DNA of 64,000 bases from a virus (lineage: Duplodnaviria > Caudoviricetes), in IMG/VR virus record IMGVR_UViG_3300020577_009322, positions 64,001 through 128,000 of that record. One strand, 5' to 3'. Made by a program: the position numbers and the translations under genes. The notes under the pieces were generated by a model. It saw nothing but the letters and a program-made list of their open reading frames with translations. It did not search any database and was not told where the DNA came from. Positions 2,802 to 40,646 of this stretch are shown piece by piece (positions within the stretch are counted from its first letter, which is position 1; each line of letters begins with the position of its first letter).

Positions 2802-3116
2802 TTAAAATCTGTATATCTCTAATGCTTCTTGTAAGCAAGGGACTAATTCCTTGATCTTTACTATATTATATAGCTTAAATCCACAGTTTACTACATCTGT
2901 ATCAGACAGACCATAATATATAGCCCAATCATGTATCTGGCCCCTTTTGGCTACCCACTTAATCGTATTCGGCAAGGAAGGCAATGAGAATGGTATTTTT
3001 ATTACATCATCTGTACCATTTTCTATATTACCTGTAGCAAAGATAGTCCCTGGCTTCATTTCCCTTAGATCATCAAGTGATAACTGTGGTGTTATTGGAG
3101 GAAATAAATATTCCAT
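2802..3116 (-). CDS. Hypothetical phage protein
   Basis: ORF track; WVAKRG..DWAIY motif. Confidence 0.7.
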   Translation of the reverse strand: MEYLFPPITPQLSLDDLREMKPGTIFATGNIENGTDDVIKIPFSLPSLPNTIKWVAKRGQIHDWAIYYGLSDTDVVNCGFKLYNIVKIKELVPCLQEALEIYRF

Positions 3117-3436
3117 TATTTTTTCTTTAATATTTTACTTATTGAGACTATTAAATAGATACCTAAACTAACTCCTTGCTCAAAAAGCAGATACAATAGT
3201 AGGAATATAGGATTAAGGGTTATTGCCATTATTAGCGGTGCAACAATTAATAGTATCCAAACTATTATAAAGAGTAGTATATATCTCATGTTATTAGTTT
3301 TAATTAAAAAAGCAGGAACCACCTAAGTGATTCCCGCTAATTTTGTACAAGTAGCCTTATTATAAGCTTAAGACGACTTGCAGATTGCCTGCCAATTCCA
3401 GTGATCTCAGAGATGTAGTAACAATACATTCTTTCT

Positions 3437-3619
3437 TCATGCTGTGGCTAGTTTTAGGTTTTCCAGTTTTTTCTTATAATAAGAGAGATATTCTTCTGAA
3501 GAAATAATCATCTCTTTTACTATTAAAGATTGGTTAGGTATTGTTTTAAGATACTTAATATAATCTTCCTCCCTGTTTACAGTACTCTGTAAAGATAGGA
3601 TAAGCCTGTTTTCTTGCAT
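3437..3619 (-). CDS. Hypothetical protein
   Basis: ORF track. Confidence 0.55.
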   Translation of the reverse strand: MQENRLILSLQSTVNREEDYIKYLKTIPNQSLIVKEMIISSEEYLSYYKKKLENLKLATA

Positions 3620-4231
3620 ACAGCTATTTGATTAATGGATAATTATAGTTACTTTAGTCAACTTATATTCCTTCAATTGTTTTAATACAATTGGATGAGA
3701 TTTTGTACATTTTATTAAGAGCTCTTTTGGTTGTTTTATTTCCAAAGAGATGAGGTGAGGAACATTCTGCTATTTCCAGAAGATTGTTTACCTGTATTAT
3801 GTGACCAAATATACCCGGAAGTTTCTTGTGTTGCAATGTTTTAAATATCATGATTCGTTGATTTGCTGTTCAATGATACGAGATAATAGATGCTGAAATT
3901 TTGTCATAGTAATAAATTTAAGAAGTTAGGAAAATATAGAAATATTCTCCGCTCTAATCCATAAAAGTTGTGATACATTACAGTTTCATAATAACCTCCT
4001 GTTTTAAAGATTTCTAAAAAATACTCAAATAAAAAAAGCAGTGACCATAGCCACTGCCTTTAACCTAAAACTTGCCTACAACGAACCAAAAGTTATGAAG
4101 CTAACTTATACTCTCTTACTGTGAAGAAGTCCAGATTTGGATATCTGGCAAATAACTTATTACGTAGTTCCCTTCTGTTTTTTTCGTAATTACAAGATGT
4201 AATAAAGCCAATCCGATATGAGGATCCATTT

Positions 4232-4450
4232 TTACCCCAACACCGGGCAATTAGGTGAGTTACCATTCTTTACCAATTTTAGAGTTGATTGATATAAATT
4301 TGTAGAAGTAGCCCAATTGACATCTAGAGGATATCCTCCCCATATCATAGAGCATATTACTTCATAAAGTTCTTTTTCTCTCTTCTTCCATTGATAGGGT
4401 AATGTCTTTCCATTTACCTCTTCATAGAAGTAGGTTATCTTCTTAGACAT
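4232..4450 (-). CDS. Hypothetical protein
   Basis: ORF track. Confidence 0.6.
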   Translation of the reverse strand: MSKKITYFYEEVNGKTLPYQWKKREKELYEVICSMIWGGYPLDVNWATSTNLYQSTLKLVKNGNSPNCPVLG

Positions 4451-4637
4451 ATATTATCTTGGTATTTTGATTATCATATTGCAGGGTGTCCAGGTTTGAG
4501 AAGGTTAAAAGAACAAAACAGGATAATCTGGACAAAAACATGGACAAAGCCAGCATGATGCTCTGGGCACCCTGTGAAATAGCCAAGATAACTGTCTTTT
4601 TCTGCATTCAGTTAAGCCCCATTTCAAAAGACGATTG

Positions 4638-5208: not shown

Positions 5209-5697
5209 TTAATGTCTGCCTGGGCTTGAGTAGCTACGGCTGGGTGAGGAATAACTTCTTGAAGGAGAAGAGTAACTTCTGCTTGGTGAAGAATACGATC
5301 GGGGAACAGTATAATCTCTGCTAGGTGGAATATACGTACCATTCGATTTTGAGGAATAGTTATTTCTGCTTGGCGAGGAGTAGTAACTACTGGTCTTAGG
5401 AGTATACTTCTGACTATAGTTACTATACTTAGCTGGTGTATAGTTAGTAAACTCCACAGGATGGCCCTGATAATAGCGATACACATTACTATAACCACCA
5501 TTGTTGAACAATGTATGAAACAGCATATAGTTCATAAAGAAACTACTCTGATCCCCATTGTCATTAACATAAGTTACATTAACCACGCTGTCCTTGCCAT
5601 CAGGTGACCACTCTGCTGTATGACTGGATTGAACACCTGTATTACAGGAAGATAATAGCATTATACCAATTGATAAAGCTATAAAAAACTTCTTCAT
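5209..5697 (-). CDS. Lipoprotein with C-terminal SRSYSSP repeats
   Basis: Signal peptide with lipobox LLSSC; about 4 heptad repeats. Confidence 0.75.
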   Translation of the reverse strand: MKKFFIALSIGIMLLSSCNTGVQSSHTAEWSPDGKDSVVNVTYVNDNGDQSSFFMNYMLFHTLFNNGGYSNVYRYYQGHPVEFTNYTPAKYSNYSQKYTPKTSSYYSSPSRNNYSSKSNGTYIPPSRDYTVPRSYSSPSRSYSSPSRSYSSPSRSYSSPGRH

Positions 5698-5724
5698 TTT
5701 TATTTCTTTTTAGTTGTTAATAAT

Positions 5725-6205
5725 TAGCACCCTCTTGTCTTACTTACACAAGCCTTTCAACCTTGATTAAGTATTAATGACCAGTAAGAGTAGGGTCACA
5801 TAGTTGATTGATTGATCTCCTTACAGTACTCTTCAGATGCATCATGTATTACTACATTACTTAGTCTTGCACTGAGATATGGACCATCTTCCTACAAGGA
5901 TCGGCTCTTATCAAGCCTTGCATTACTACATCAACTACTGCTGAGAACTCATTCGTATTATGGTACCATAGTTTAGACAAGTGTACTTATTACCTTTTAA
6001 TCTATGCTTTCTTTCTCAAGGAAATAATACGTCTACCATTACTGATAGAATTTGTTATGTAGGGAACAGTGCGACACCTTTCGGTGGCTTCCTTCATACG
6101 TCATTACACGTTCTACAAAGTAGGACTTTGATAACCTCGTTGATTATAAGAACAGTGCCCAGTCTATCAACTACATACAGTTTATGTATTATCCTGCATG
6201 GGTAA
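5725..6205 (-). ncRNA. Large structured ncRNA candidate (~480 nt)
   Basis: No credible ORF; at least 5 GNRA-capped hairpins all in minus polarity; 12-bp long-range helix. Confidence 0.6.
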
Positions 6206-6384
6206 AAGATTTATGATAAAGCAATAATTGCTGTAATAGGGGAACCTATCAATGCACAAGCAGCTGCTGCTGTAAATCCATATACGGCCCCAACAATTGC
6301 TACTATAATAATAAATAGTATAAGTACGAATAAAGTTATTTTATCTTGTTTTGTCATTTTTCAAATTTTTATATACTAAATAAG

Positions 6385-6675
6385 TTATTTATCTACCGGA
6401 ACACACATCATATCCTCAACTTGTTCCGCAATATCTTCAGGAGGTAAAATTTCTCTTATGTGAGATAGTGGAAAACCAAGTTCATAATTATGAATATTAT
6501 ACCCAATTATACCTTCCTCAAAGAAAACAACTACTTCTTTTGTTCCTTCACACATACATTCATCCCTAATCATGTATGGTGTTTTTTCATCCATTTGAGG
6601 AAGCCATTTTACATAAGGTTCGTTTATATCACCAACAGCGATTTTTCTACAGACTACGATAGATCCTGGTTTCAT
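6385..6675 (-). CDS. Hypothetical protein
   Basis: ORF track. Confidence 0.7.
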   Translation of the reverse strand: MKPGSIVVCRKIAVGDINEPYVKWLPQMDEKTPYMIRDECMCEGTKEVVVFFEEGIIGYNIHNYELGFPLSHIREILPPEDIAEQVEDMMCVPVDK

Positions 6676-7043: not shown

Positions 7044-7625
7044 TTATGGTATATATAGAATTGTTGGATTGTTTTTATGAATATCAATATTCGGATAAAC
7101 CGATTTAAATGCTTGAACATCAAATGGTCTTGTAATTAAATGAACTCCATTTTTTGTGTTAAGAATACTTATAAGTTTCGTTCCTTCTGGTCTCAGTGTT
7201 TCAATTAATTTAAGTACGTCATTCACTACCCTACCCTTTTCATCAATATCTACAATCCATTTTTTAGTTCCATTCTCATTGCTAAATGAGCCGCAACATG
7301 AATTATAAGATTTTCTTACACTAGTAAAATCCTTATTCATTATATGGTCAGTAATGCTTTTTAAATTGTGGTAACATATTCTTTCAAAACTTCTTTTGTT
7401 AAGATTGATACATACCCTTGCATTATGGAAATCTGCCAAACACTTCATTTCACCCCAATCCAATTCCAATTCCTCAATAGATTTAATGTAATAGGTTTTT
7501 ATAACATGACTATTACTACCAAGTTCCGCATTGTCTTTTTTGCGCTTTAATATTTGACAGAAGTAAAAATCATCCTTACTATCAAATAAAAGTAGTTTTT
7601 TTATATCGTCAAAATTATCTATCAT
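7044..7625 (-). CDS. Phage protein, possible archaeo-eukaryotic primase (AEP)-like fold
   Basis: WIVDID (hhhDxD) and TKNGVHL (S/TxxGxH) motifs. Confidence 0.5.
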   Translation of the reverse strand: MIDNFDDIKKLLLFDSKDDFYFCQILKRKKDNAELGSNSHVIKTYYIKSIEELELDWGEMKCLADFHNARVCINLNKRSFERICYHNLKSITDHIMNKDFTSVRKSYNSCCGSFSNENGTKKWIVDIDEKGRVVNDVLKLIETLRPEGTKLISILNTKNGVHLITRPFDVQAFKSVYPNIDIHKNNPTILYIP

Positions 7626-7928
7626 TTTATTGTTAATTTAAGAATGACATAATAAAGCCCCCTCCTATTTGCCAGATAGAAGGGAGCAATGAGCTTAGAG
7701 CATCGTGGAGAAGAATTCCATAAAGGTAATTCCCTTGGTTATCCAATAATATAACATTTACACAAGGCATAATGTTATTCCTCCAGATTTCGTCTAGTTT
7801 TTTAATATAAATAATACATCTCTATTATAGACCTTATATAGTCTATAGTCTAACCCATGAGGAACCTAAATTCCTCATGACGCTCTTGGGCTTAATAGCT
7901 TTGGAGAAACTCCCTGGCCCAGACCAGA

Positions 7929-8267
7929 TTAAAGGAAGCTGTAGTACATGTTTGGTGCAGCAGCTTTTACAGCCTTTTTGAAAGCATCATAATCTCCATC
8001 TGCATGGAACTGTTGCCTTGCTGTTTCCAGTGCCACTACCAGATCTTTGGCTTCTTTTTCTTGTTGCCTGATACGGCGTAATGAAGCAACAGAGGCTGAT
8101 ACTACAGTCTGAGCAAGAGAAAGTTGCTCAATGAGCTTCTCCTGCTGTTCTTTGTTCTGTTGTTCTTTCAAACTTTCCAGCGCTTTTTTCACTGAATCAC
8201 TGGTTGGTTTACCTGACATTGAGGCCAATAATTTTTCGGCATCAACTTTTGTTGTAGGTTTTGACAT
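7929..8267 (-). CDS. Coiled-coil hypothetical protein
   Basis: ORF track. Confidence 0.7.
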   Translation of the reverse strand: MSKPTTKVDAEKLLASMSGKPTSDSVKKALESLKEQQNKEQQEKLIEQLSLAQTVVSASVASLRRIRQQEKEAKDLVVALETARQQFHADGDYDAFKKAVKAAAPNMYYSFL

Positions 8268-8633: not shown

Positions 8634-8882
8634 TTAGTCTAATACCTCCTTCAATCCCTCCTTATCCACAACAATAACTGGCTGATACTCAACGGGAAAC
8701 TGGTTACACCGCTCATCAAAGTTCCAATCGAGGAACCGTAATACCTGCCATAACACAAACCATATTACAGGGAAGTATACCCATCTCTGCAGAGTAGTGT
8801 GAGGTTCTAAACCAAGTAATCCGGTTAATAAAGCTAATAGTATTACGATCAAACCATAAGTAACCCAATAAGTAAATCTCAT
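8634..8882 (-). CDS. Small membrane protein
   Basis: Two hydrophobic segments. Confidence 0.6.
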   Translation of the reverse strand: MRFTYWVTYGLIVILLALLTGLLGLEPHTTLQRWVYFPVIWFVLWQVLRFLDWNFDERCNQFPVEYQPVIVVDKEGLKEVLD

Positions 8883-8970
8883 ATTCTTCTTTTTTTATTT
8901 AGCTGATGAAAAATAAGGGAGTATATAGAAATACACTCCCATTAAAACCCTCAATTTATGAACAAATACC

Positions 8971-9019
8971 GTGAGAGGTTATGGATTCGAACCAATCTAG
9001 TCCCTATAACTCCTCTCAT
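8971..9019 (-). ncRNA. Mini tRNA-like element (acceptor stem plus T-arm)
   Basis: tgagagg/cctctca 7-bp stem enclosing GGTTCGAATCC. Confidence 0.4.
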
Positions 9020-9184
9020 AAAATAGTAATAATCAGAGTAAAAATGAATAAAAACTCTGCTCTTTTGTCATGACACAATGTCAGATAGAGATATTACCTA
9101 AAGCCATTTTAACATTCTTCACATCAGTAAAGGAAGCTGCCATTACGGCAGCCTCCCTAACTTATCATTAATCAAACAGCGATC

Positions 9185-9652
9185 TTAGTCCTGTACAGCC
9201 GGTTTCAGTGTGCGTTTGGTAGAACCCACTGACTGACCGTTCTTAGCGTAGATGCTGTAACGCTCTTTTTGAGCATTCTGCCTGAACTCGTTTGCAGAGG
9301 CACTGAAAGGCTTGGTTGTCAACCATACGCTCCTGTCACGTTTTGCAACGTCCAGAACCAGGTCTTCACCTTCATAGTGACCCATTTGGGTCTCATCATC
9401 CCAGGTAAAATTCTCGTTGTCTTCAAAGGCATCCTGATGCACTTTGATTTCCACCACGTTCTCTGCAGTAACCGGATACACTTCACCATCCAATTCTACC
9501 GTCTGTGAACCCCTCACTTTATCCATTGGTTCCGCCAGCTCCAGGATAGCCACTTTTGTACCATCACTTGTGGTTTGTGGTGTGATCATAGTGAAATCGA
9601 AAGATACCAGAGATAGGTCTTTGATTTTCTTAAACAATGCTACTTTTGCCAT
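9185..9652 (-). CDS. Hypothetical protein (start MAKVALF), paralogue of 9781..10263
   Basis: Shared LAEPxDKV, ENVVE(I/V)K, GxYxG..L(V/I)LD and VWLT..FS motifs. Confidence 0.8.
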   Translation of the reverse strand: MAKVALFKKIKDLSLVSFDFTMITPQTTSDGTKVAILELAEPMDKVRGSQTVELDGEVYPVTAENVVEIKVHQDAFEDNENFTWDDETQMGHYEGEDLVLDVAKRDRSVWLTTKPFSASANEFRQNAQKERYSIYAKNGQSVGSTKRTLKPAVQD

Positions 9653-35975: not shown

Positions 35976-36050
35976 CTAGATGTTCCACAGTTGGTTATAT
36001 GGGCTTGCCCTGGAAGCAAGTGTTCGTCAGTTCGAATCTGACCATCTAGA
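35976..36050 (+). tRNA. trnP: tRNA-Pro(UGG)
   Basis: cttgc-ccTGGaa-gcaag; cloverleaf. Confidence 0.85.
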
Positions 36051-36053
36051 CAT

Positions 36054-36125
36054 GCTTTCTTAATAGTAATGGTAGCTACTCTGTTTTGTAATCAGAAAGT
36101 GTCAGTTCGAGTCTGACAGAAAGCT
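36054..36125 (+). tRNA. trnT: tRNA-Thr(UGU)
   Basis: tctgt-ttTGTaa-tcaga. Confidence 0.8.
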
Positions 36126-36133
36126 CTTAACTT

Positions 36134-36205
36134 GGTCCTTTGGGTGAGTGGTTTAACTATTAGTCTGCAAAACTAATTACAGCAGTTCGAATCTGCTAGG
36201 GACCT
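36134..36205 (+). tRNA. trnC: tRNA-Cys(GCA)
   Basis: ttagt-ctGCAaa-actaa. Confidence 0.9.
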
Positions 36206-36274
36206 CAAAGGCTTGTCCTTGAAACAACCTTCCCGTGGAGGGAACTGTAAGACAGTTTAAATAAGAGGATAGCT

Positions 36275-36346
36275 GGAAATATAACTCAGTTGGTAGAGTG
36301 CCAGATTGAAGATCTGGTTGCATCAGTTCGATTCTGATTATTTCCA
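36275..36346 (+). tRNA. trnF: tRNA-Phe(GAA)
   Basis: ccaga-ttGAAga-tctgg. Confidence 0.9.
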
Positions 36347-36351
36347 CATAT

Positions 36352-36423
36352 ACGTGTGTAGTGTAGTTGGTAACACAGCAGTCTCCAAAACTGTATTCAC
36401 CTGTTCGAATCGGGTCATACGTG
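36352..36423 (+). tRNA. trnW: tRNA-Trp(CCA)
   Basis: gcagt-ctCCAaa-actgt. Confidence 0.9.
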
Positions 36424-36428
36424 CTTAT

Positions 36429-36499
36429 TTTCTTGTAGTGTAATGGTAACACATGAGATTTTGGCTCTCATATTTTAGGTTCGAGTCCTAACAAGAAAA
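36429..36499 (+). tRNA. trnQ: tRNA-Gln(UUG)
   Basis: tgaga-ttTTGgc-tctca. Confidence 0.9.
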
Positions 36500-36501
36500 C
36501 T

Positions 36502-36575
36502 GGTGATTATAGCATAATGGTAGTGCAAAAGTTTGTGAAGCTTACAGGTGGGAGTTCGAATCTCCTTAGTCACCC
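36502..36575 (+). tRNA. trnH: tRNA-His(GUG)
   Basis: aaagt-ttGTGaa-gctta; G-1. Confidence 0.85.
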
Positions 36576-36581
36576 TTATAA

Positions 36582-36657
36582 ACTCCGTTAGCTAAACTGG
36601 ATACGGCACCAGAATACGAATCTGGAGATTTTGAGGGTTCGAATCCTTCACGGAGTA
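36582..36657 (+). tRNA. trnR: tRNA-Arg(ACG)
   Basis: ccaga-atACGaa-tctgg. Confidence 0.9.
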
Positions 36658-36952
36658 CAATTTTAAATAATAATTTTCCTAAAATAAAATATATACTATA
36701 TCTTTGTTCTATGATAGGAAAAATAATAAAATCAGATATGAAATCTAGGATCAGTTATAATATAACTGGTTTAGATAAGGGAATATTATTTGTTAATAAA
36801 AATACATCATCATTATCTCCAGATGGATATGAAGGAAAATGTCCACAAGGGGAACTATTTAACAATAATGGAAATAGTTGGAGATCGAGTTGTTGATAGA
36901 GGGAGACTTTCTATAGAAGTAGATGAGAATGGATATGTTACTATAAAATAAA

Positions 36953-36984
36953 TTTGGTAATTGTTAAAAATAGTTGTATATTTG
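36953..36984 (+). promoter_or_regulatory. Bacteroidota-type promoter upstream of tRNA block 2
   Basis: TTTG-N20-TATATTTG. Confidence 0.8.
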
Positions 36985-37027
36985 TGCTGCACTGACCAAG
37001 TAGGCGTGTTACTAAAAATATACAAAC

Positions 37028-37333
37028 ATGAAGAGTACAATTAGAGTGGACTTTCAGGGTCCGGAGACATCGTCTCAAAATGGTTTTGAACCAGTTATTA
37101 GAGTAAATTTAGTAGAAAGTGATGACACACGAGATAAGTTACTAAAGACATTCTTTCAGTCATTAGGTGGAGAAAGTTCCTGGCTACATGTAAAACATGT
37201 AAAAATTGATCAATCGTGTCATTCTGGATTAATTAATGATAGTATAGTAATTACTCCAGTAAAAGAGGCTGATATTGAGAACTTGAAGAAAGAGATAGAA
37301 GATAGAATAAATGATAAGAGAAATATTTTTTAA
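37028..37333 (+). CDS. Hypothetical protein
   Basis: ORF track, after the promoter. Confidence 0.7.
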   Translation: MKSTIRVDFQGPETSSQNGFEPVIRVNLVESDDTRDKLLKTFFQSLGGESSWLHVKHVKIDQSCHSGLINDSIVITPVKEADIENLKKEIEDRINDKRNIF

Positions 37334-37350
37334 ACCTTAAATATAATAAT

Positions 37351-37461
37351 ATGATAATAGGATTAATTATTAGTGGAGTAGTGGGTTTCATAGTTGGAGC
37401 CTTGGTATTTAGAAATAATGCTAAAAAGGGAGAAGAAATTATTGATAATCTTAAAAAGTAA
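37351..37461 (+). CDS. Small single-TM protein MIIGLIISGVVGFIVGALVFRNNAKKGEEIIDNLKK
   Basis: Manual translation. Confidence 0.65.
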   Translation: MIIGLIISGVVGFIVGALVFRNNAKKGEEIIDNLKK

Positions 37462-37473
37462 TAAAGACAACTA

Positions 37474-37542
37474 ATGCAACAATTTTATATGATAGTTAGA
37501 AATATTTTAGGGGCGGATGAAAAATCTGGCTCTAGGGAATAA
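37474..37542 (+). CDS. Attenuator leader peptide 2 (MQQFYMIVRNILGADEKSGSRE)
   Basis: Run M-I(ATA)-V-R(AGA)-N-I(ATT)-L-G-A-D-E-K matches block 2 tRNAs; 3' end holds the antiterminator gctctaggg. Confidence 0.8.
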   Translation: MQQFYMIVRNILGADEKSGSRE

Positions 37543-37567
37543 TTTTACTATCTTATAATAGAAAGTT

Positions 37568-37604
37568 AACCCTGGAGCATATTAAGCTTCAGGGTTTTTC
37601 TTTT
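37568..37604 (+). terminator. Attenuator terminator 2
   Basis: aaccctggagc-atattaa-gcttcagggtt plus T-run, just before tRNA-Lys. Confidence 0.88.
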
Positions 37605-37609
37605 AAAAT

Positions 37610-37684
37610 ACCTTCGTAGCAAAATGTGGCTTTGCTCCTGACTTTTAATCAGAACAAAAATGGGTTCGACTTCCTTCGAAGGTA
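37610..37684 (+). tRNA. trnK: tRNA-Lys(UUU)
   Basis: cctga-ctTTTaa-tcaga. Confidence 0.8.
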
Positions 37685-37687
37685 CTT

Positions 37688-37762
37688 GGGATCTTAGCAA
37701 AAATGATATTTCTTCAGCCTCTTAAGCTGAATAAAAGTAGAGTTCGATTCTCACAGATCCCA
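37688..37762 (+). tRNA. trnK: tRNA-Lys(CUU)
   Basis: tcagc-ctCTTaa-gctga; atypical D-arm. Confidence 0.75.
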
Positions 37763-37772
37763 CATAAGTATA

Positions 37773-37804
37773 TTTGGTGGTTCGAAAATTATTTCGTATA
37801 TTTG
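37773..37804 (+). promoter_or_regulatory. Bacteroidota-type promoter of the HNH gene
   Basis: TTTG-N20-TATATTTG. Confidence 0.75.
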
Positions 37805-37808
37805 ATAT

Positions 37809-38339
37809 ATGAAAGAAAGAATAGAACAATTAAGAAAAGAAGGAAAAAGTTATAGTGAAATATCAAAGATAACTGGATTAGTCAAATCTACAATATCATA
37901 CTATGTAGGAAATAGAACTGGAAAAGGTAAGCTAACAGCTGAAAAAAGAAATTGTAGAAATTGTGAAAAAGAAATCAGTTCTCCAAAAGTTTTCTGTGAT
38001 AAAAAATGTGATTTTGAATATAAACAGAAACTTAGGTTAGATAAATTTGAAAAAAGCAATTTGTGTACAAATAATTCTATTAGAAAAGCACTTATTTCTA
38101 TAAATGGAAATAAATGCAGTATTTGTGAAATCTCTGAAATATGGAATGATAGGAAATTAACTATGCATGTAGATCATATTGATGGAAATTCTGATAATAA
38201 TGATAATAAAAATGTTAGATTAGTATGTCCTAATTGTCATTCTCAACTAGAAACATCTAAAAATAAAGTTAAAAAACAAACAAAAAGAAATAAATACTTA
38301 AGAAAATACAAAGGTTATATAGATGCCCCTGTCGTATAG
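37809..38339 (+). CDS. HNH homing endonuclease with N-terminal HTH, inserted in the tRNA array
   Basis: HVDHIDGN..N...NVRLVCPNCHSQ. Confidence 0.9.
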   Translation: MKERIEQLRKEGKSYSEISKITGLVKSTISYYVGNRTGKGKLTAEKRNCRNCEKEISSPKVFCDKKCDFEYKQKLRLDKFEKSNLCTNNSIRKALISINGNKCSICEISEIWNDRKLTMHVDHIDGNSDNNDNKNVRLVCPNCHSQLETSKNKVKKQTKRNKYLRKYKGYIDAPVV

Positions 38340-38397
38340 TGATTTAATATCTCTCTCTTACAAAGAGAAGACGGCAGTTTGATTCTGCACAGGGGTA
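38325..38397 (+). tRNA. trnV: tRNA-Val(UAC)
   Basis: tctct-ctTACaa-agaga; overlaps HNH stop. Confidence 0.8.
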
Positions 38398-38402
38398 CAA
38401 AT

Positions 38403-38474
38403 GGTTCTATAGTGTAATGATTAGCACAACTCTCTTCTAAAGAGTTAGTATAAGTTTGACCCTTGTTAGGACTA
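38403..38474 (+). tRNA. trnR: tRNA-Arg(UCU)
   Basis: actct-ctTCTaa-agagt. Confidence 0.75.
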
Positions 38475-38514
38475 CAGATGAGTTACCCTTCTCCGTGTAT
38501 TAAAAAGGGATAAT

Positions 38515-38589
38515 GTCTGAATAGCTGAGTTGGTTTCAAGCACTTGACTGTTAATCAAGAGTAGTTGGGTTCGATCCCCAAATCAGACG
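38515..38589 (+). tRNA. trnN: tRNA-Asn(GUU)
   Basis: cttga-ctGTTaa-tcaag. Confidence 0.9.
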
Positions 38590-38595
38590 CTTTAT

Positions 38596-38666
38596 TGTGC
38601 GGTGGTGTAATGGTAGCATATTGGGCTCATAACCCAATGATGAAAGTTCGACTCTTTCCTGCGCAA
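38596..38666 (+). tRNA. trnM: tRNA-Met(CAU), initiator-like anticodon stem
   Basis: ttggg-ctCATaa-cccaa (three consecutive G:C pairs). Confidence 0.85.
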
Positions 38667-38669
38667 CTT

Positions 38670-38885
38670 ATGAAAAATTACATAGAAGATCAAATTAGAA
38701 AAGGTTACAGGGTATACGACCTTAAAGAAATACTCGGAGAAACACCAATGCAATCAGATATAGATAATTTGATTGAAAAATTAGGTCCTAATAAGTTAGG
38801 TGAAGTTGATGAAAATGGTTATCTTTACGTGAAAACAGATCAATCGTGGAGAAATATTTTAGGACAGCGGATGGAGAAATGGTGA
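38670..38885 (+). CDS. Hypothetical protein (start MKNYIEDQ)
   Basis: Track ORF N-terminus overlaps tRNAs; ATG right after tRNA-Met. Confidence 0.6.
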   Translation: MKNYIEDQIRKGYRVYDLKEILGETPMQSDIDNLIEKLGPNKLGEVDENGYLYVKTDQSWRNILGQRMEKW

Positions 38886-39319
38886 ATATAATCTCTCACT
38901 GTAGAGAAATATTAGCAAAAGAACCAGATGCTAAGATATTAATTGGAACTGACTCACAGGATGAGGATGGAAAAAGTAAGTATTGTACTGTAATAGTATT
39001 TAGATATGGATTACGTGGTGCTCACTTTATCTACAGTAAGGATGATAGGAAAAAGATAAGAGATATTTTCACTCGTTTATTTACTGAGTGTGAGTACTCA
39101 CTAGAAATTGCTGAGCATATAACTAAGAATACTAGTTATAAAGTATCAACAATAGAGTTAGATTTCAATGATTTCAAGAAGACAAAATCAACACCTTTAA
39201 TATCAGCAACAAAGGGATGGTGTGAATCTTTAGGTTACTCAGCTACTCTAAAAAGTGGTGAAATGTTTGCTTGTAAAGCAGCAGATCATATCCTAAGACA
39301 TCCATCATTATATAAATAA
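38846..39319 (+). CDS. RNase H-like YkuK (DUF458) family protein
   Basis: LIGTDSQ, RLFTE, IELDFN, CKAADH. Confidence 0.8.
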   Translation: MEKYFRTADGEMVNIISHCREILAKEPDAKILIGTDSQDEDGKSKYCTVIVFRYGLRGAHFIYSKDDRKKIRDIFTRLFTECEYSLEIAEHITKNTSYKVSTIELDFNDFKKTKSTPLISATKGWCESLGYSATLKSGEMFACKAADHILRHPSLYK

Positions 39320-39347
39320 TACTTTCAAACAAAAATAAATTTAGTAA

Positions 39348-39421
39348 GCAGTATACGCATAAATGGTGGTGCACCAGTCTTCCAAATTGGAATAGAGTCA
39401 GTTCGATCCTGACATGCTGCA
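39348..39421 (+). tRNA. trnG: tRNA-Gly(UCC)
   Basis: ccagt-ctTCCaa-attgg. Confidence 0.85.
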
Positions 39422-39483
39422 CCCTTAAGAGAGATTAAATAAAGTCTGCAGCTTTTGGCCAATATTGGTTCTCTCTTTTGCAG

Positions 39484-39555
39484 GGCCCTTTCGTCTAATG
39501 TGTAGGACGACGCTCTTTCCAAGCGTAGATTTCGGTTCGAATCCGTGAGGGGCTA
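39484..39555 (+). tRNA. trnE: tRNA-Glu(UUC)
   Basis: acgct-ctTTCca-agcgt. Confidence 0.85.
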
Positions 39556-39561
39556 CAATAA

Positions 39562-39635
39562 GGTCTATGGATGTGGCAGGGTGTGGCTACTGGATTGTCA
39601 ATCCAGGGAGACGGGTTCGATCCCCGTATAGACCG
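39562..39635 (+). tRNA. trnD: tRNA-Asp(GUC)
   Basis: ctgga-ttGTCaa-tccag. Confidence 0.85.
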
Positions 39636-39692
39636 CAACGAGGAACATGGTAATTCATGTCTGAGGCTGAAAGAAGCAATCCCCTCGTCTAT

Positions 39693-39765
39693 GCTTCTAT
39701 AGCTCAATGGTCAGAGCAGGACGCTTATATCGTCAAGGTTTCCAGTTCGAGTCTGGATAGAAGTA
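39693..39765 (+). tRNA. trnI: tRNA-Ile(UAU)
   Basis: ggacg-ctTATat-cgtca. Confidence 0.8.
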
Positions 39766-39770
39766 CATAT

Positions 39771-39843
39771 TGGAGTGTAGCTCAAATGGTAGAGCGCCTG
39801 CCTGATACGCAGGAGGTACAGGGATCGTTACCCTGCATTCCAA
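39771..39843 (+). tRNA. trnI: tRNA-Ile(GAU)
   Basis: cctgc-ctGATac-gcagg. Confidence 0.85.
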
Positions 39844-39970
39844 CGGAGTGTTACGCATAGCCTCTCAACGATGTAGCGTTTCTCCTCGGTAGCCCGTCGA
39901 CGTAATCCGAGACAGTTCATTACCTAATAAGAATGAGTTAGGGAGATATGGGAAACCTGCTCCCGATTTT

Positions 39971-40043
39971 GGGGATAAAGCTCTAGTGGATGAGCATCTG
40001 CCTTGCACGCAGAAGGTTAGGAATTCGAGTTTCCTTATCTCCA
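39971..40043 (+). tRNA. trnA: tRNA-Ala(UGC)
   Basis: tctgc-ctTGCac-gcaga; G3:U70. Confidence 0.9.
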
Positions 40044-40089
40044 CAAATAAATTTGGTAAATATAAATATTTGTAGTATTATATAATATA

Positions 40090-40161
40090 ATGAAGAAACT
40101 ATATACATATTATTCGTTAAGTCTCTTGTCCTTAAATGGACTAGCTAGGAATACTATGTGA
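40090..40161 (+). CDS. Attenuator leader peptide 3 (MKKLYTYYSLSLLSLNGLARNTM)
   Basis: 11 of 12 consecutive codons are Leu/Tyr/Ser, matching block 3 tRNAs; contains the antiterminator agctagga. Confidence 0.8.
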   Translation: MKKLYTYYSLSLLSLNGLARNTM

Positions 40162-40192
40162 TAACAGTGGGCAATCGTTAGATCATTCGTGT

Positions 40193-40223
40193 AAATCCTG
40201 GCTTTAATTAGTCAGGATTTTTT
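40193..40223 (+). terminator. Attenuator terminator 3
   Basis: aaatcctggct-ttaatt-agtcaggattt plus T-run, just before tRNA-Leu. Confidence 0.88.
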
Positions 40224-40227
40224 ATTT

Positions 40228-40301
40228 GTGGGTATGGCGGAATTGGAATACGCAACAGGTTTAGACCCTGAAATTTAAGAGTTCGAGTCTCTTTACCCAT
40301 A
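40228..40301 (+). tRNA. trnL: tRNA-Leu(UAG), short variable arm
   Basis: acagg-ttTAGac-cctga. Confidence 0.85.
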
Positions 40302-40307
40302 CTATAT

Positions 40308-40381
40308 GTCCTTGTGATGGAATTGGAATACATGTCAGACTTAAAATCTGAATTTTACGGGTTCGAGTCCCGTCTTGGACA
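40308..40381 (+). tRNA. trnL: tRNA-Leu(UAA), short variable arm
   Basis: tcaga-ctTAAaa-tctga. Confidence 0.85.
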
Positions 40382-40386
40382 CATAA

Positions 40387-40469
40387 GGAAGAGCGCATTG
40401 TGAGAGCTTATCCGTCCTGAAAACGGTGAAGGTGTAATAGCTGTGAGAGTTCGATTCTCTCCTCTTCCG
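40387..40469 (+). tRNA. trnS: tRNA-Ser(UGA)
   Basis: tccgt-ccTGAaa-acggt; long variable arm; atypical D-arm. Confidence 0.8.
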
Positions 40470-40474
40470 CTTAT

Positions 40475-40557
40475 AGAGAAATGACAGAGTGGTAATGTAG
40501 CAGTTTGCTAAACTGTAGATGGTAACACATCCGTGAGTTCGATCCTCACTTTCTCTG
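40475..40557 (+). tRNA. trnS: tRNA-Ser(GCU)
   Basis: gcagt-ttGCTaa-actgt; long variable arm. Confidence 0.9.
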
Positions 40558-40562
40558 CAGAT

Positions 40563-40646
40563 GGGTATGATGGTAAATGTGGTTAAATCAGGAGACTGTA
40601 AATCTCTCGTCATTAGACTGTTGGAGTTCGATTCTGTACATACCCA
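40563..40646 (+). tRNA. trnY: tRNA-Tyr(GUA)
   Basis: ggaga-ctGTAaa-tctct. Confidence 0.9.

Follow-up and report, generated by a model that had tools for sequence, protein, structure and literature searches.

A conserved, structured RNA family of phages, inferred by sequence comparison, whose members frequently adjoin tRNA and tmRNA genes

A gap without open reading frames and the family to which it belongs

Between two minus-strand genes of an environmental phage lie some 480 nt in which no protein appears to be encoded, and the question raised by this locus is what such a gap holds instead. The window that we analysed is a stretch of 64,000 nucleotides, bases 64001-128000 of a complete 155,463-bp IMG/VR virus genome with direct terminal repeats. 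PHROG terminase, portal and head proteins were detected in this phage, which has 27 tRNA genes and a standard genetic code and whose DNA is present in river and wastewater metagenomes, no RNA run being among the datasets listed as containing it. The gap interrupts a row of small genes on the minus strand and lies about 30 kb away from the tRNA arrays. It is bounded upstream by an ORF of 48 aa that weakly matches families of small membrane proteins (6211-6357, minus strand) and downstream by a gene for a 162-aa protein with a lipoprotein-signal-like N-terminus (5209-5697, minus strand), which has no homology to the genes downstream of other members of the family described below. The first-pass annotation had proposed that the gap lacks a credible ORF and contains a large, ornate, minus-strand phage non-coding RNA. 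The first of these proposals is readily verified, in that TAA, TAG and TGA all occur in each of the six frames, leaving no ORF under any reading of the stop codons; recoding of stop codons in this standard-code genome is excluded as the cause of the gap on the same grounds. The 480-nt gap is therefore truly non-coding.

Relatives of the gap were not found by the most direct routes. Neither the gap itself nor the 6 kb around it gave a blastn match among GenBank phages, and the flanking proteins used as probes found no related loci. A search with the large terminase (TerL) yielded ten related IMG/VR records, and comparison of the gap with these whole records gave co-linear patches in two of them, one of which has two sites. 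All of the patches fall in ORF-free gaps on the same strand as the adjoining genes, and alignment of the four gaps revealed an invariant ACGAAUGAGUUCUCAGCA and several further blocks. A 15-mer from this invariant block matched at least 117 viral loci, of which about 85 were confirmed by a profile over 100-400 positions, and when a second scan was started from P1, a hairpin at some distance from this block, it found 70 loci, of which about 45 were new. The family thus assembled from two independent seeds comprises at least 117 distinct core sequences at 119 IMG/VR loci, on contigs of 4 to 373 kb.

We built a core covariance model, R1, from 60 sequences including the window's copy; it covers helices P3, P4 and P5 and the invariant single strand, and it was used together with domain-wise alignments in place of a full-length (315-position) covariance model. 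R1 finds the window's copy on the minus strand at 88.4 bits (E = 2.4e-23, model positions 1-122). This copy is in the seed; copies that are not score comparably (93.8 bits for Cellulophaga phage phi14:2, 81-110 bits for copies in metagenome-assembled genomes). The model finds one copy and no second in the window's own genome, two in the relative G001 and one in G003, and duplicated copies also occur as a tandem pair in L105 and as two copies in L154.

One genome from each of about 185,000 prokaryote species was scanned for an exact 19-mer, which matched only three contigs, all from metagenome-assembled genomes and all confirmed by R1; one is from Sphingobacteriales and two are labelled Clostridium sp. 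A further 150 genomes from the class of the Sphingobacteriales assembly gave a single weak match of 30 bits. Judged from these scans, the family is carried almost only by phages, many of them infecting Bacteroidota, and is rare in cellular genomes. Four DNA sequencing runs contained identical low-depth contig fragments of the window's phage, without readable micro-diversity, and the same four runs also yielded short pieces of other family members. In the literature, a search on the invariant 12-mer GAGUUCUCAGCA returned unrelated primer matches only, and the sole earlier description that we found of what is probably a member of the family is that of unnamed transcripts of phi14:2, to which we return below.

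Architecture of the element and the evidence for its fold

The element occupies 5724-6205 on the minus strand (about 480 nt, R1 88 bits) and is read from 6205 to 5724. Its 5' limit was placed at the start of a conserved subtype module, about 90% common to G001, and its 3' limit at the invariant GGGUGCUAA. Across the family the order from 5' to 3' is P1, the P2 domain, P3, P4 (enclosing P5 and a variable hairpin), the single strand GAGUUCUCAGCA, P7, P8 and the tail. All of the family helices map to the window's copy with 100% canonical pairs, and all of the invariant blocks are kept.

The 5' end of the window's copy carries features of a subtype that is common to six other loci (L012, L041, L073, L081, L083 and L103) and differs from the main type in having a 5' hairpin (P0) and a local helix (P0b) and in the loop of P1. 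P0 lies at 6174-6200 (6200-6194/6180-6174) with the loop GAUAAUACAUAAA. Six subtype members contain seven such hairpins, all with 7/7 pairs and built from six different stem sequences, around a near-invariant loop, AUAAU(A/U)CAUAAA. P0b (6139-6171; 6171-6166/6144-6139) forms 6/6 pairs and encloses a variable insert; the same arrangement, GUUGAU...AUCAAC around inserts of differing length, is found in subtype members, and its support is weaker than that of the other helices. The P1 hairpin follows at 6122-6137 (6137-6135/6124-6122). Main-type P1 has the form AGGU-UAAACAUUGAAU-ACCU, and the window's hairpin agrees with it in position and stem (AGG/CCU), with the subtype loop UUAUCAAAGU where the main type has UAAACAUUGAAU.

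The long-range helix P2 (6056-6118; 6118-6113/6062-6056; 6/6 pairs in the window) encloses a variable domain, and beyond it stands P3 (6032-6049; 6049-6043/6038-6032), the GNRA hairpin UCUAUCA-GUAA-UGGUAGA, which is recovered by RNAalifold and in which all 6 pairs covary. P4, a second long-range helix (5954-6031; 6031-6025/5960-5954), reads CGUAUUA/UAAUACG in the window against a consensus of UGUGUUG/CAACACA and encloses both the variable hairpin P6 and P5 (6008-6024; 6024-6021/6011-6008), a UUUC/GAAA stem with 4/4 covarying pairs and a conserved loop, CUUGAGAAA. Both of these marks of the family are present, namely UGAGAA of the P5 loop at 6018-6013 and the invariant strand GAGUUCUCAGCA at 5950-5939.

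The 3' domain begins with P7 (5800-5938; 5938-5930/5808-5800), which has 9/9 pairs in the window and closes a 121-nt variable insert with several hairpins; some family members are without P7. In the family P7 is followed by GUGACCCUACUCUUAU, the P8 hairpin and AUAAGAAAGAGGGUGCUAA, and the window's 5808-5724 likewise passes from P7 through GUGACCCUACUCUUA and P8 to the 3' end AGAGGGUGCUAA, all pairs being canonical. P8 (5729-5796) consists of the nearly invariant P8a (ACCCU/AGGGU, 5796-5792/5733-5729), P8b (UCUUAC/GUAAGA, 5789-5784/5743-5738) and a variable tip, the last two of which covary. The 3' end itself, GGGUGCUAA at 5724-5732, is invariant or nearly so in 46 aligned members. Two further features were considered and set aside. 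A general terminal helix AGCACC/GGUGCU was rejected, AGCAC-like upstream strings being present in few members only, as was a tmRNA-like tag frame, GCA AGU AGU UAA, after the invariant strand: it falls within P7, does not persist as a reading frame across the family, and is missing from members that have no P7.

How much of this is more than the folding propensity of any RNA of this length? Folding the single sequence is uninformative, with z = -1.26 for the minus strand and -0.04 for the plus strand relative to shuffles, and the unconstrained minimum-free-energy structure of the window's copy recovers only P0, P3 and P4. The case for structure beyond chance rests on comparative evidence, not on folding energy. 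RNAalifold, given 60 core sequences, predicts P3 and P4 independently, and 13/13 of their pairs show changes on both sides. When P3, P4 and P5 were scored on a MAFFT alignment, 94.1% of cells were paired, compared with 76.5% after shuffling and about 40% when the strands were slid, and 204 cells had changed on both sides as against 46 in shuffles, a value reached by none of 500 shuffles. P4 alone is paired in 99.3% of cells, with double-sided changes at 7/7 pairs. The P7/P8 domain (46 sequences) is 88.9% paired against 38-49% when slid, P7 having compensatory changes in 5/7 family pairs, and the P1/P2 domain (25 sequences) is 94% paired against 31-65%, with compensatory changes in 6/8 family pairs of P2. 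The P1 stem hardly varies among those 25 sequences, and other members have stems GUCG/CGAC, GUGG/CCAC and CUCA/UGAG. Because P1 and P8a are almost invariant, their pairing is unproven by covariation. Taken together, abundant compensatory changes support the predicted helices P1-P5, P7 and P8, with little covariation in P1 and P8a, and the minus strand is identified as the RNA sense by the GNRA loops and the many G-U pairs. The alignments show, as far as comparison alone can, an RNA structure of several helices conserved by purifying and compensatory selection, and it is these family-wide changes that bear out the proposal of a large minus-strand non-coding RNA.

One tertiary contact can be proposed. 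The P5-loop UGAGAA (6018-6013) is complementary to UUCUCA (5947-5942) within the invariant strand, which suggests a pseudoknot. Since the first set of members had itself been selected on the invariant strand, we examined 50 members seeded on P1. In 37 the two elements are canonical and 13 are variants; of these, eight keep 6/6 pairs (one by a double change from G-C to A-U, in L162, and seven through wobbles), three lose the terminal pair and two lose two pairs. Support for the putative loop-strand pseudoknot is thus modest, with one double change, seven wobbles and two contradicting members.

Family comparison also sorts the individual hairpins on which the first-pass annotation had based its proposal. 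All of those listed here exist in the sequence. The tctatca-GTAA-tggtaga hairpin (6032-6049) is family helix P3, and P8 has as its tip the GAAA-capped hairpin at about 5750-5767. The cacc-GAAA-ggtg hairpin (6075-6086) is located in the variable domain enclosed by P2, and atgta-GTAA-tacat (5844-5857) in a variable insert, as are the hairpin at about 5917-5928 and the other remaining GNRA hairpins. Several of the hairpins first noticed are thus, on the present alignments, parts of variable inserts and stand outside the conserved core. The repeat GCACTGTTC does occur twice on the minus strand (6064-6072 and 6150-6158), with a chance expectation of 0.09 in the window, and its conservation is absent in relatives.

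A 12-bp helix joining 6166-6177 to 5798-5809 had likewise been proposed. The complementarity is there, arising because GUAGUUGAU occurs twice, and the pairing itself is disfavoured by the family, in which 5800-5808 pairs with 5930-5938 (P7) and 6166-6171 with 6139-6144 (P0b). In subtype members the 3' strand of P7 forms 8, 8, 7 and 6 pairs with the P7 5' strand as opposed to 6, 7, 6 and 4, respectively, with the 5' module, and one subtype member has no 5' copy of the P7-pairing sequence at all. P7 is the better assignment, then, because the 3' strand pairs at least equally well with its local partner and because one member lacks the alternative.

Genomic neighbours, expression and known RNAs

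An encoded protein partner was sought in 77 neighbourhoods and no consistently recurring family was found: none occurs in more than 9 of the 77, the most recurrent being an SPFH/Band-7 lipoprotein, HNH endonucleases and unknowns. RNA genes are the more regular company. At 11 or more of 60 loci ARAGORN and Rfam identify a same-strand tmRNA no more than about 1 kb away, in most cases a short distance downstream. At one locus (L088) the tmRNA begins 6 nt past the tail of the RNA, and at another (L136) a tRNA ends 2 nt ahead of P1. Members often abut tRNA genes, with only a few nucleotides between them at several loci, or precede a phage tmRNA gene on their own strand. A tmRNA above the Rfam cut-off is present in 19 of 49 carrier records and in one of 38 control records (quasi-random IMG/VR records, being chance matches of the first scan), a few additional carriers have one below the cut-off, and the density of tmRNA genes is roughly 5 per megabase in carriers compared with 1 in controls. 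This enrichment is real, yet genome size and lineage act as confounders. The copy in the window has no tRNA neighbours, and ARAGORN finds no tmRNA in its whole 155-kb genome; the tmRNA link is therefore a tendency of the family and not a rule.

The only experimental support for the family comes from a relative, and there is no expression evidence for the window's copy. The cultured marine phage phi14:2 (Crassvirales), whose host is Cellulophaga baltica, carries a complete member on the plus strand (KC821624, 2912-3360; R1 93.8 bits), taken here as the type example of the family, with P1, P2, P3-P5, the invariant strand, P7, P8 and the GCUAA tail. It is of the main type, as distinct from the window's subtype with P0, P0b and its different P1 loop. 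GenBank has only three tiny antisense ORFs there, which RefSeq has since deleted. Strand-specific RNA-seq of this phage, covering four time points both with rifampicin and without it, detected two rightward, abundant and persistent intergenic RNAs, termed 'long non-coding RNAs', which are seen already at the first time point and keep their level as other early transcripts fall (bioRxiv 10.1101/2020.03.07.982082). Drobysheva et al. reported transcription of the gaps only, giving no structure, family or function, and wrote that the functions of these RNAs 'remain to be determined'; their paper uses Yutin's gene numbers and places one RNA at the g004-g005 junction (bioRxiv 10.1101/2020.03.07.982082). 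The two longest plus-strand ORF-free gaps in the left arm of phi14:2 are 2905-3589, which contains the element, and 4102-4601, in which we found an unannotated tmRNA with the tag GSSVQKLAMVA*, and the two gaps flank one substantial gene. Because the element and the tmRNA fill the two longest gaps, we infer that the published RNAs are most probably the family member and this tmRNA, the g004-g005 junction being record positions 2905-3589 by inference from the gene layout. On that identification the family member is transcribed from its sense strand, early and persistently, and is very probably one of the phage's most abundant transcripts.

Does the element belong to an RNA already known? Rfam 15 gave no match at the gathering threshold over the whole window, and at E up to 10 the region 5500-6450 had only three chance-level matches (E 3.6-9), far below gathering. 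Nor did any family match the element at gathering in 18 other member loci, and no curated family exceeded chance level in the phi14:2 member at E up to 10. The Rfam 15 models of introns (groups I and II), RNase P RNA, self-cleaving ribozymes and riboswitches left both the element in the window and the phi14:2 member unmatched. The covariance-model search that the first-pass annotation had called for (ROOL, GOLLD and introns) has thus been run without a match to any catalogued family, and its impression of a ROOL- or GOLLD-like style that could be assigned to no family holds for the shared genomic habits, phage-borne and near tRNA islands, and for the absence of any Rfam match.

ROOL is a large multi-junction RNA with pseudoknots, found in phages and prophages and often near tRNA islands, with no protein partner and no function known (PMC5737381; PMC12286853). 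The new family resembles it in being large and multi-junction, with a pseudoknot that is so far putative, and is similarly borne by phages near tRNA islands, without an encoded protein partner. However, the Rfam ROOL model does not match it, even at E up to 10 in the window and phi14:2; its members are 300-480 nt compared with a ROOL mean of 581, they have far more invariant nucleotides, and their hosts, where known, are Bacteroidota. GOLLD is also phage-borne and tRNA-adjacent, sometimes with tRNAs inside or beside it, its function too is unknown, and a conserved 3' part with a more variable 5' part is common to it and the new family. In contrast, no match to the Rfam GOLLD model was obtained, the new RNA is less than half the size of GOLLD (over 800 nt), and its sequence and secondary structure are unrelated. 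tmRNA (RF00023) neighbours the family more often than anything else does, sharing its strand and its RNA islands, and both are pseudoknotted, phage-borne and a few hundred nucleotides long. That the element might itself be a tmRNA was rejected, there being no match with RF00023 or ARAGORN and no tRNA-like acceptor/T domain as a rule. As far as these model searches can tell, the family is a large one uncatalogued in Rfam 15, and a new class among the known large ornate phage RNAs.

What the element may do

We think it reasonably probable that 6205-5724 on the minus strand is the gene of a structured RNA of about 480 nt that is transcribed with its neighbours, is stable, and may have a role in trans. 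Co-transcription has good odds in our view because no terminator was found around the window's element and the single strong promoter-like match near it lies inside the RNA. By inference from the phi14:2 data, the family RNA would quite likely accumulate as a stable free RNA, and where it sits in an array of RNA genes it would, we expect with similar confidence, be excised by the tRNA-processing enzymes that trim the adjoining tRNA or tmRNA. The RNA may then act in trans, either alone as an RNA assembly or with host factors. By analogy with ROOL and GOLLD, whose niche this would be, such action might fall within the phage's toolkit for translation and tRNA/tmRNA; no partner has been shown, and we advance the idea as a serious possibility that is held only tentatively. 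Such long unpaired stretches without variation, namely the P1 loop, J2/3, the core strand and the 3' tail, imply a partner, a catalytic role or an assembly role, and none has been identified. A narrower proposal would be that the family is a large RNA with a catalytic or scaffolding role in maturing, protecting or redirecting tmRNA, tRNAs or host trans-translation in infection. A role with a tRNA or tmRNA partner would explain the invariant strands, the site directly upstream of tmRNA and the rRNA-like persistence in phi14:2, and we nonetheless lend this particular proposal little credence at present.

Another way to view the locus is as a cis-acting element of an operon, for instance a long leader, a module for processing or stability, or a signal governing expression of the gene or RNA behind it. 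The layout is compatible with this, since the window's copy stands in a same-strand row of genes, its 5' limit 6 nt after the stop of the upstream ORF and its 3' end 27 nt before the ATG of the downstream gene, without a terminator and with its only strong promoter-like match internal. In three relatives the next gene begins 20-30 nt past GCUAA, and two Cellulophaga phages, phi4:1 and phi17:2, contain only the P8/tail module, 17 nt ahead of a gene (ahead of its start codon in phi4:1, where the family core is found nowhere in the genome). However, the downstream feature varies across the family between tRNA, tmRNA and unrelated ORFs, with no protein family exceeding 9 of 77 neighbourhoods, and at least nine helices, a pseudoknot and long invariant strands exceed the needs of known leaders. 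The phi14:2 intergenic RNAs, moreover, remain abundant as other early transcripts drop. The 3' tail was considered as a general promoter or expression signal and rejected, its motif having a single occurrence in the whole 155-kb genome. We regard a purely cis-acting role as unlikely, without excluding it.

The stable RNA gene that we favour could instead owe its form to self-assembly, as a closed multimer (a cage or scaffold) resembling ROOL and GOLLD by convergence and not by homology. The habits shared with those RNAs (phage-borne, near tRNA islands, without an encoded protein partner) speak for this, as do GNRA loops, invariant single-stranded loops (that of P1, UAAACAUUGAAU, among them) for which an internal partner has not been identified, and the very probable high abundance of one member. 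Set against them are the shorter length of the family RNA than that of either ROOL (mean 581 nt) or GOLLD (over 800 nt) and the lack of any self-complementary conserved loop, for which no systematic check was made. There are no data on oligomerisation, and we give the idea little weight.

Two other readings fit the data poorly. It is most improbable that the element is a mobile or self-processing RNA, such as a degenerate group I or II intron, a retroelement or guide RNA, or a self-cleaving ribozyme array. Its neighbours do vary between phages, copies are duplicated (G001, L105 and L154) and HNH endonuclease genes adjoin 5 of 77 members; but Rfam intron, ribozyme, retron and guide-RNA models give no match at E up to 10, reverse transcriptase, TnpB/IscB and maturase are absent nearby, and each flanking gene is intact from its own start to its own stop, which leaves no exons to join. 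Scarcely conceivable is conservation at the level of DNA with the RNA structure incidental (an origin, a packaging signal or a protein-binding array), for although the long invariant blocks GAGTTCTCAGCA and GGGTGCTAA are compatible with protein-binding DNA sites, pairing is kept by compensatory changes in seven helices, the frequent G-U pairs would be A-C on the opposite strand, the element is always oriented like the neighbouring genes and RNA genes, and transcription in phi14:2 runs rightward, along the element's sense strand.

To our knowledge only a few large, complex classes of bacterial and phage RNA are known (rRNA, RNase P, group I and II introns, tmRNA, OLE, GOLLD, ROOL and raiA), and we know of none among them that has not shown unusual biochemistry. 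The structured RNA gene inferred here would add to these a new class that is widespread in environmental phages of 20 to 370 kb and travels with tRNA and tmRNA genes. Recognising it also corrects annotation, in that the phi14:2 RNA and tmRNA had previously been tiny antisense ORFs or unannotated. A cultured model exists in phi14:2 on Cellulophaga baltica, with public strand-specific RNA-seq, and the role of large phage RNAs near tRNA islands is therefore directly testable.

Paired copies and partial forms of the element

Some phages carry the element twice, either as a tandem pair separated by a few hundred bases or with 5.6 kb between the copies, and in these two-copy phages the second copy is the more divergent. 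The pairs lie at 4073-4198 and 4426-4539 in L105 and at 1222-1361 and 1464-1591 in L154 (both IMG/VR loci with family members), and at 97786-97901 and 103539-103720 in G001, a phage record related by its TerL.

In Cellulophaga phage phi4:1, only the 3'-terminal P8 hairpin and its GCUAA tail are present, with GGGCGCUAA (L204 2990-3100, KC821632.1 about 131463-131573); gp172 begins 17 nt downstream, an arrangement that recurs in phi17:2. The phi4:1 genome has no copy of the family core at any position, and the P8/tail unit of these two phages is a module that stands alone or else a remnant.

The tip of P8 is variable, and in a minority of members (L013 about 1590-1615, L092, L023 and L051) it includes a hairpin like a T-loop; UAGG-UGCGAAU-CCUA and CAGG-UUUGAAU-CCUG are two examples. 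Together with the stem and the single-stranded 3' tail, such a tip resembles an acceptor/T-arm minihelix.

A probable flanking signal, gaps and tRNA genes

Directly past the 3' end of the RNA lies an AT-rich stretch (AAUUAUUAACAA.UAA; window 5708-5728, minus strand) that occurs a second time at 1627-1645, upstream of the gene at 1159-1617, and similar stretches occur at four sites in the relative G001. This phage group probably shares the stretch as a promoter-type or 5' UTR signal that lies outside the RNA.

The same minus-strand arm holds four more ORF-poor gaps of 300-535 nt (1897-2432, 3851-4232, 7625-8131 and 8882-9185), none of which is matched by R1, the covariance model of the family core; they may contain other small RNAs or promoters. 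ARAGORN calls a minus-strand tRNA-Ser(tga) at 2038-2109, unreported by the Rfam tRNA model at gathering. Two dense plus-strand arrays (35976-40646) hold 23 tRNAs by Rfam, and the whole genome has 27 by ARAGORN; no tmRNA was found in it. In other phages, Rfam tRNA matches of 99-122 nt immediately adjoin family members (L111 1259-1380, L060 616-714 and L023 6148-6257). ARAGORN makes no call at these sites, which may be tRNA genes carrying insertions or introns.

An unannotated tmRNA gene in phi14:2

In Cellulophaga phage phi14:2, ARAGORN places a plus-strand tmRNA gene (tag GSSVQKLAMVA*) at L203 3413-3882, or KC821624.1 about 4031-4500. The gene is unannotated and occupies the second long intergenic gap, where the GenBank entries are only tiny antisense ORFs (gp013 and gp014). 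The second abundant 'lncRNA' in the published RNA-seq of this phage (bioRxiv 10.1101/2020.03.07.982082) is probably this tmRNA.
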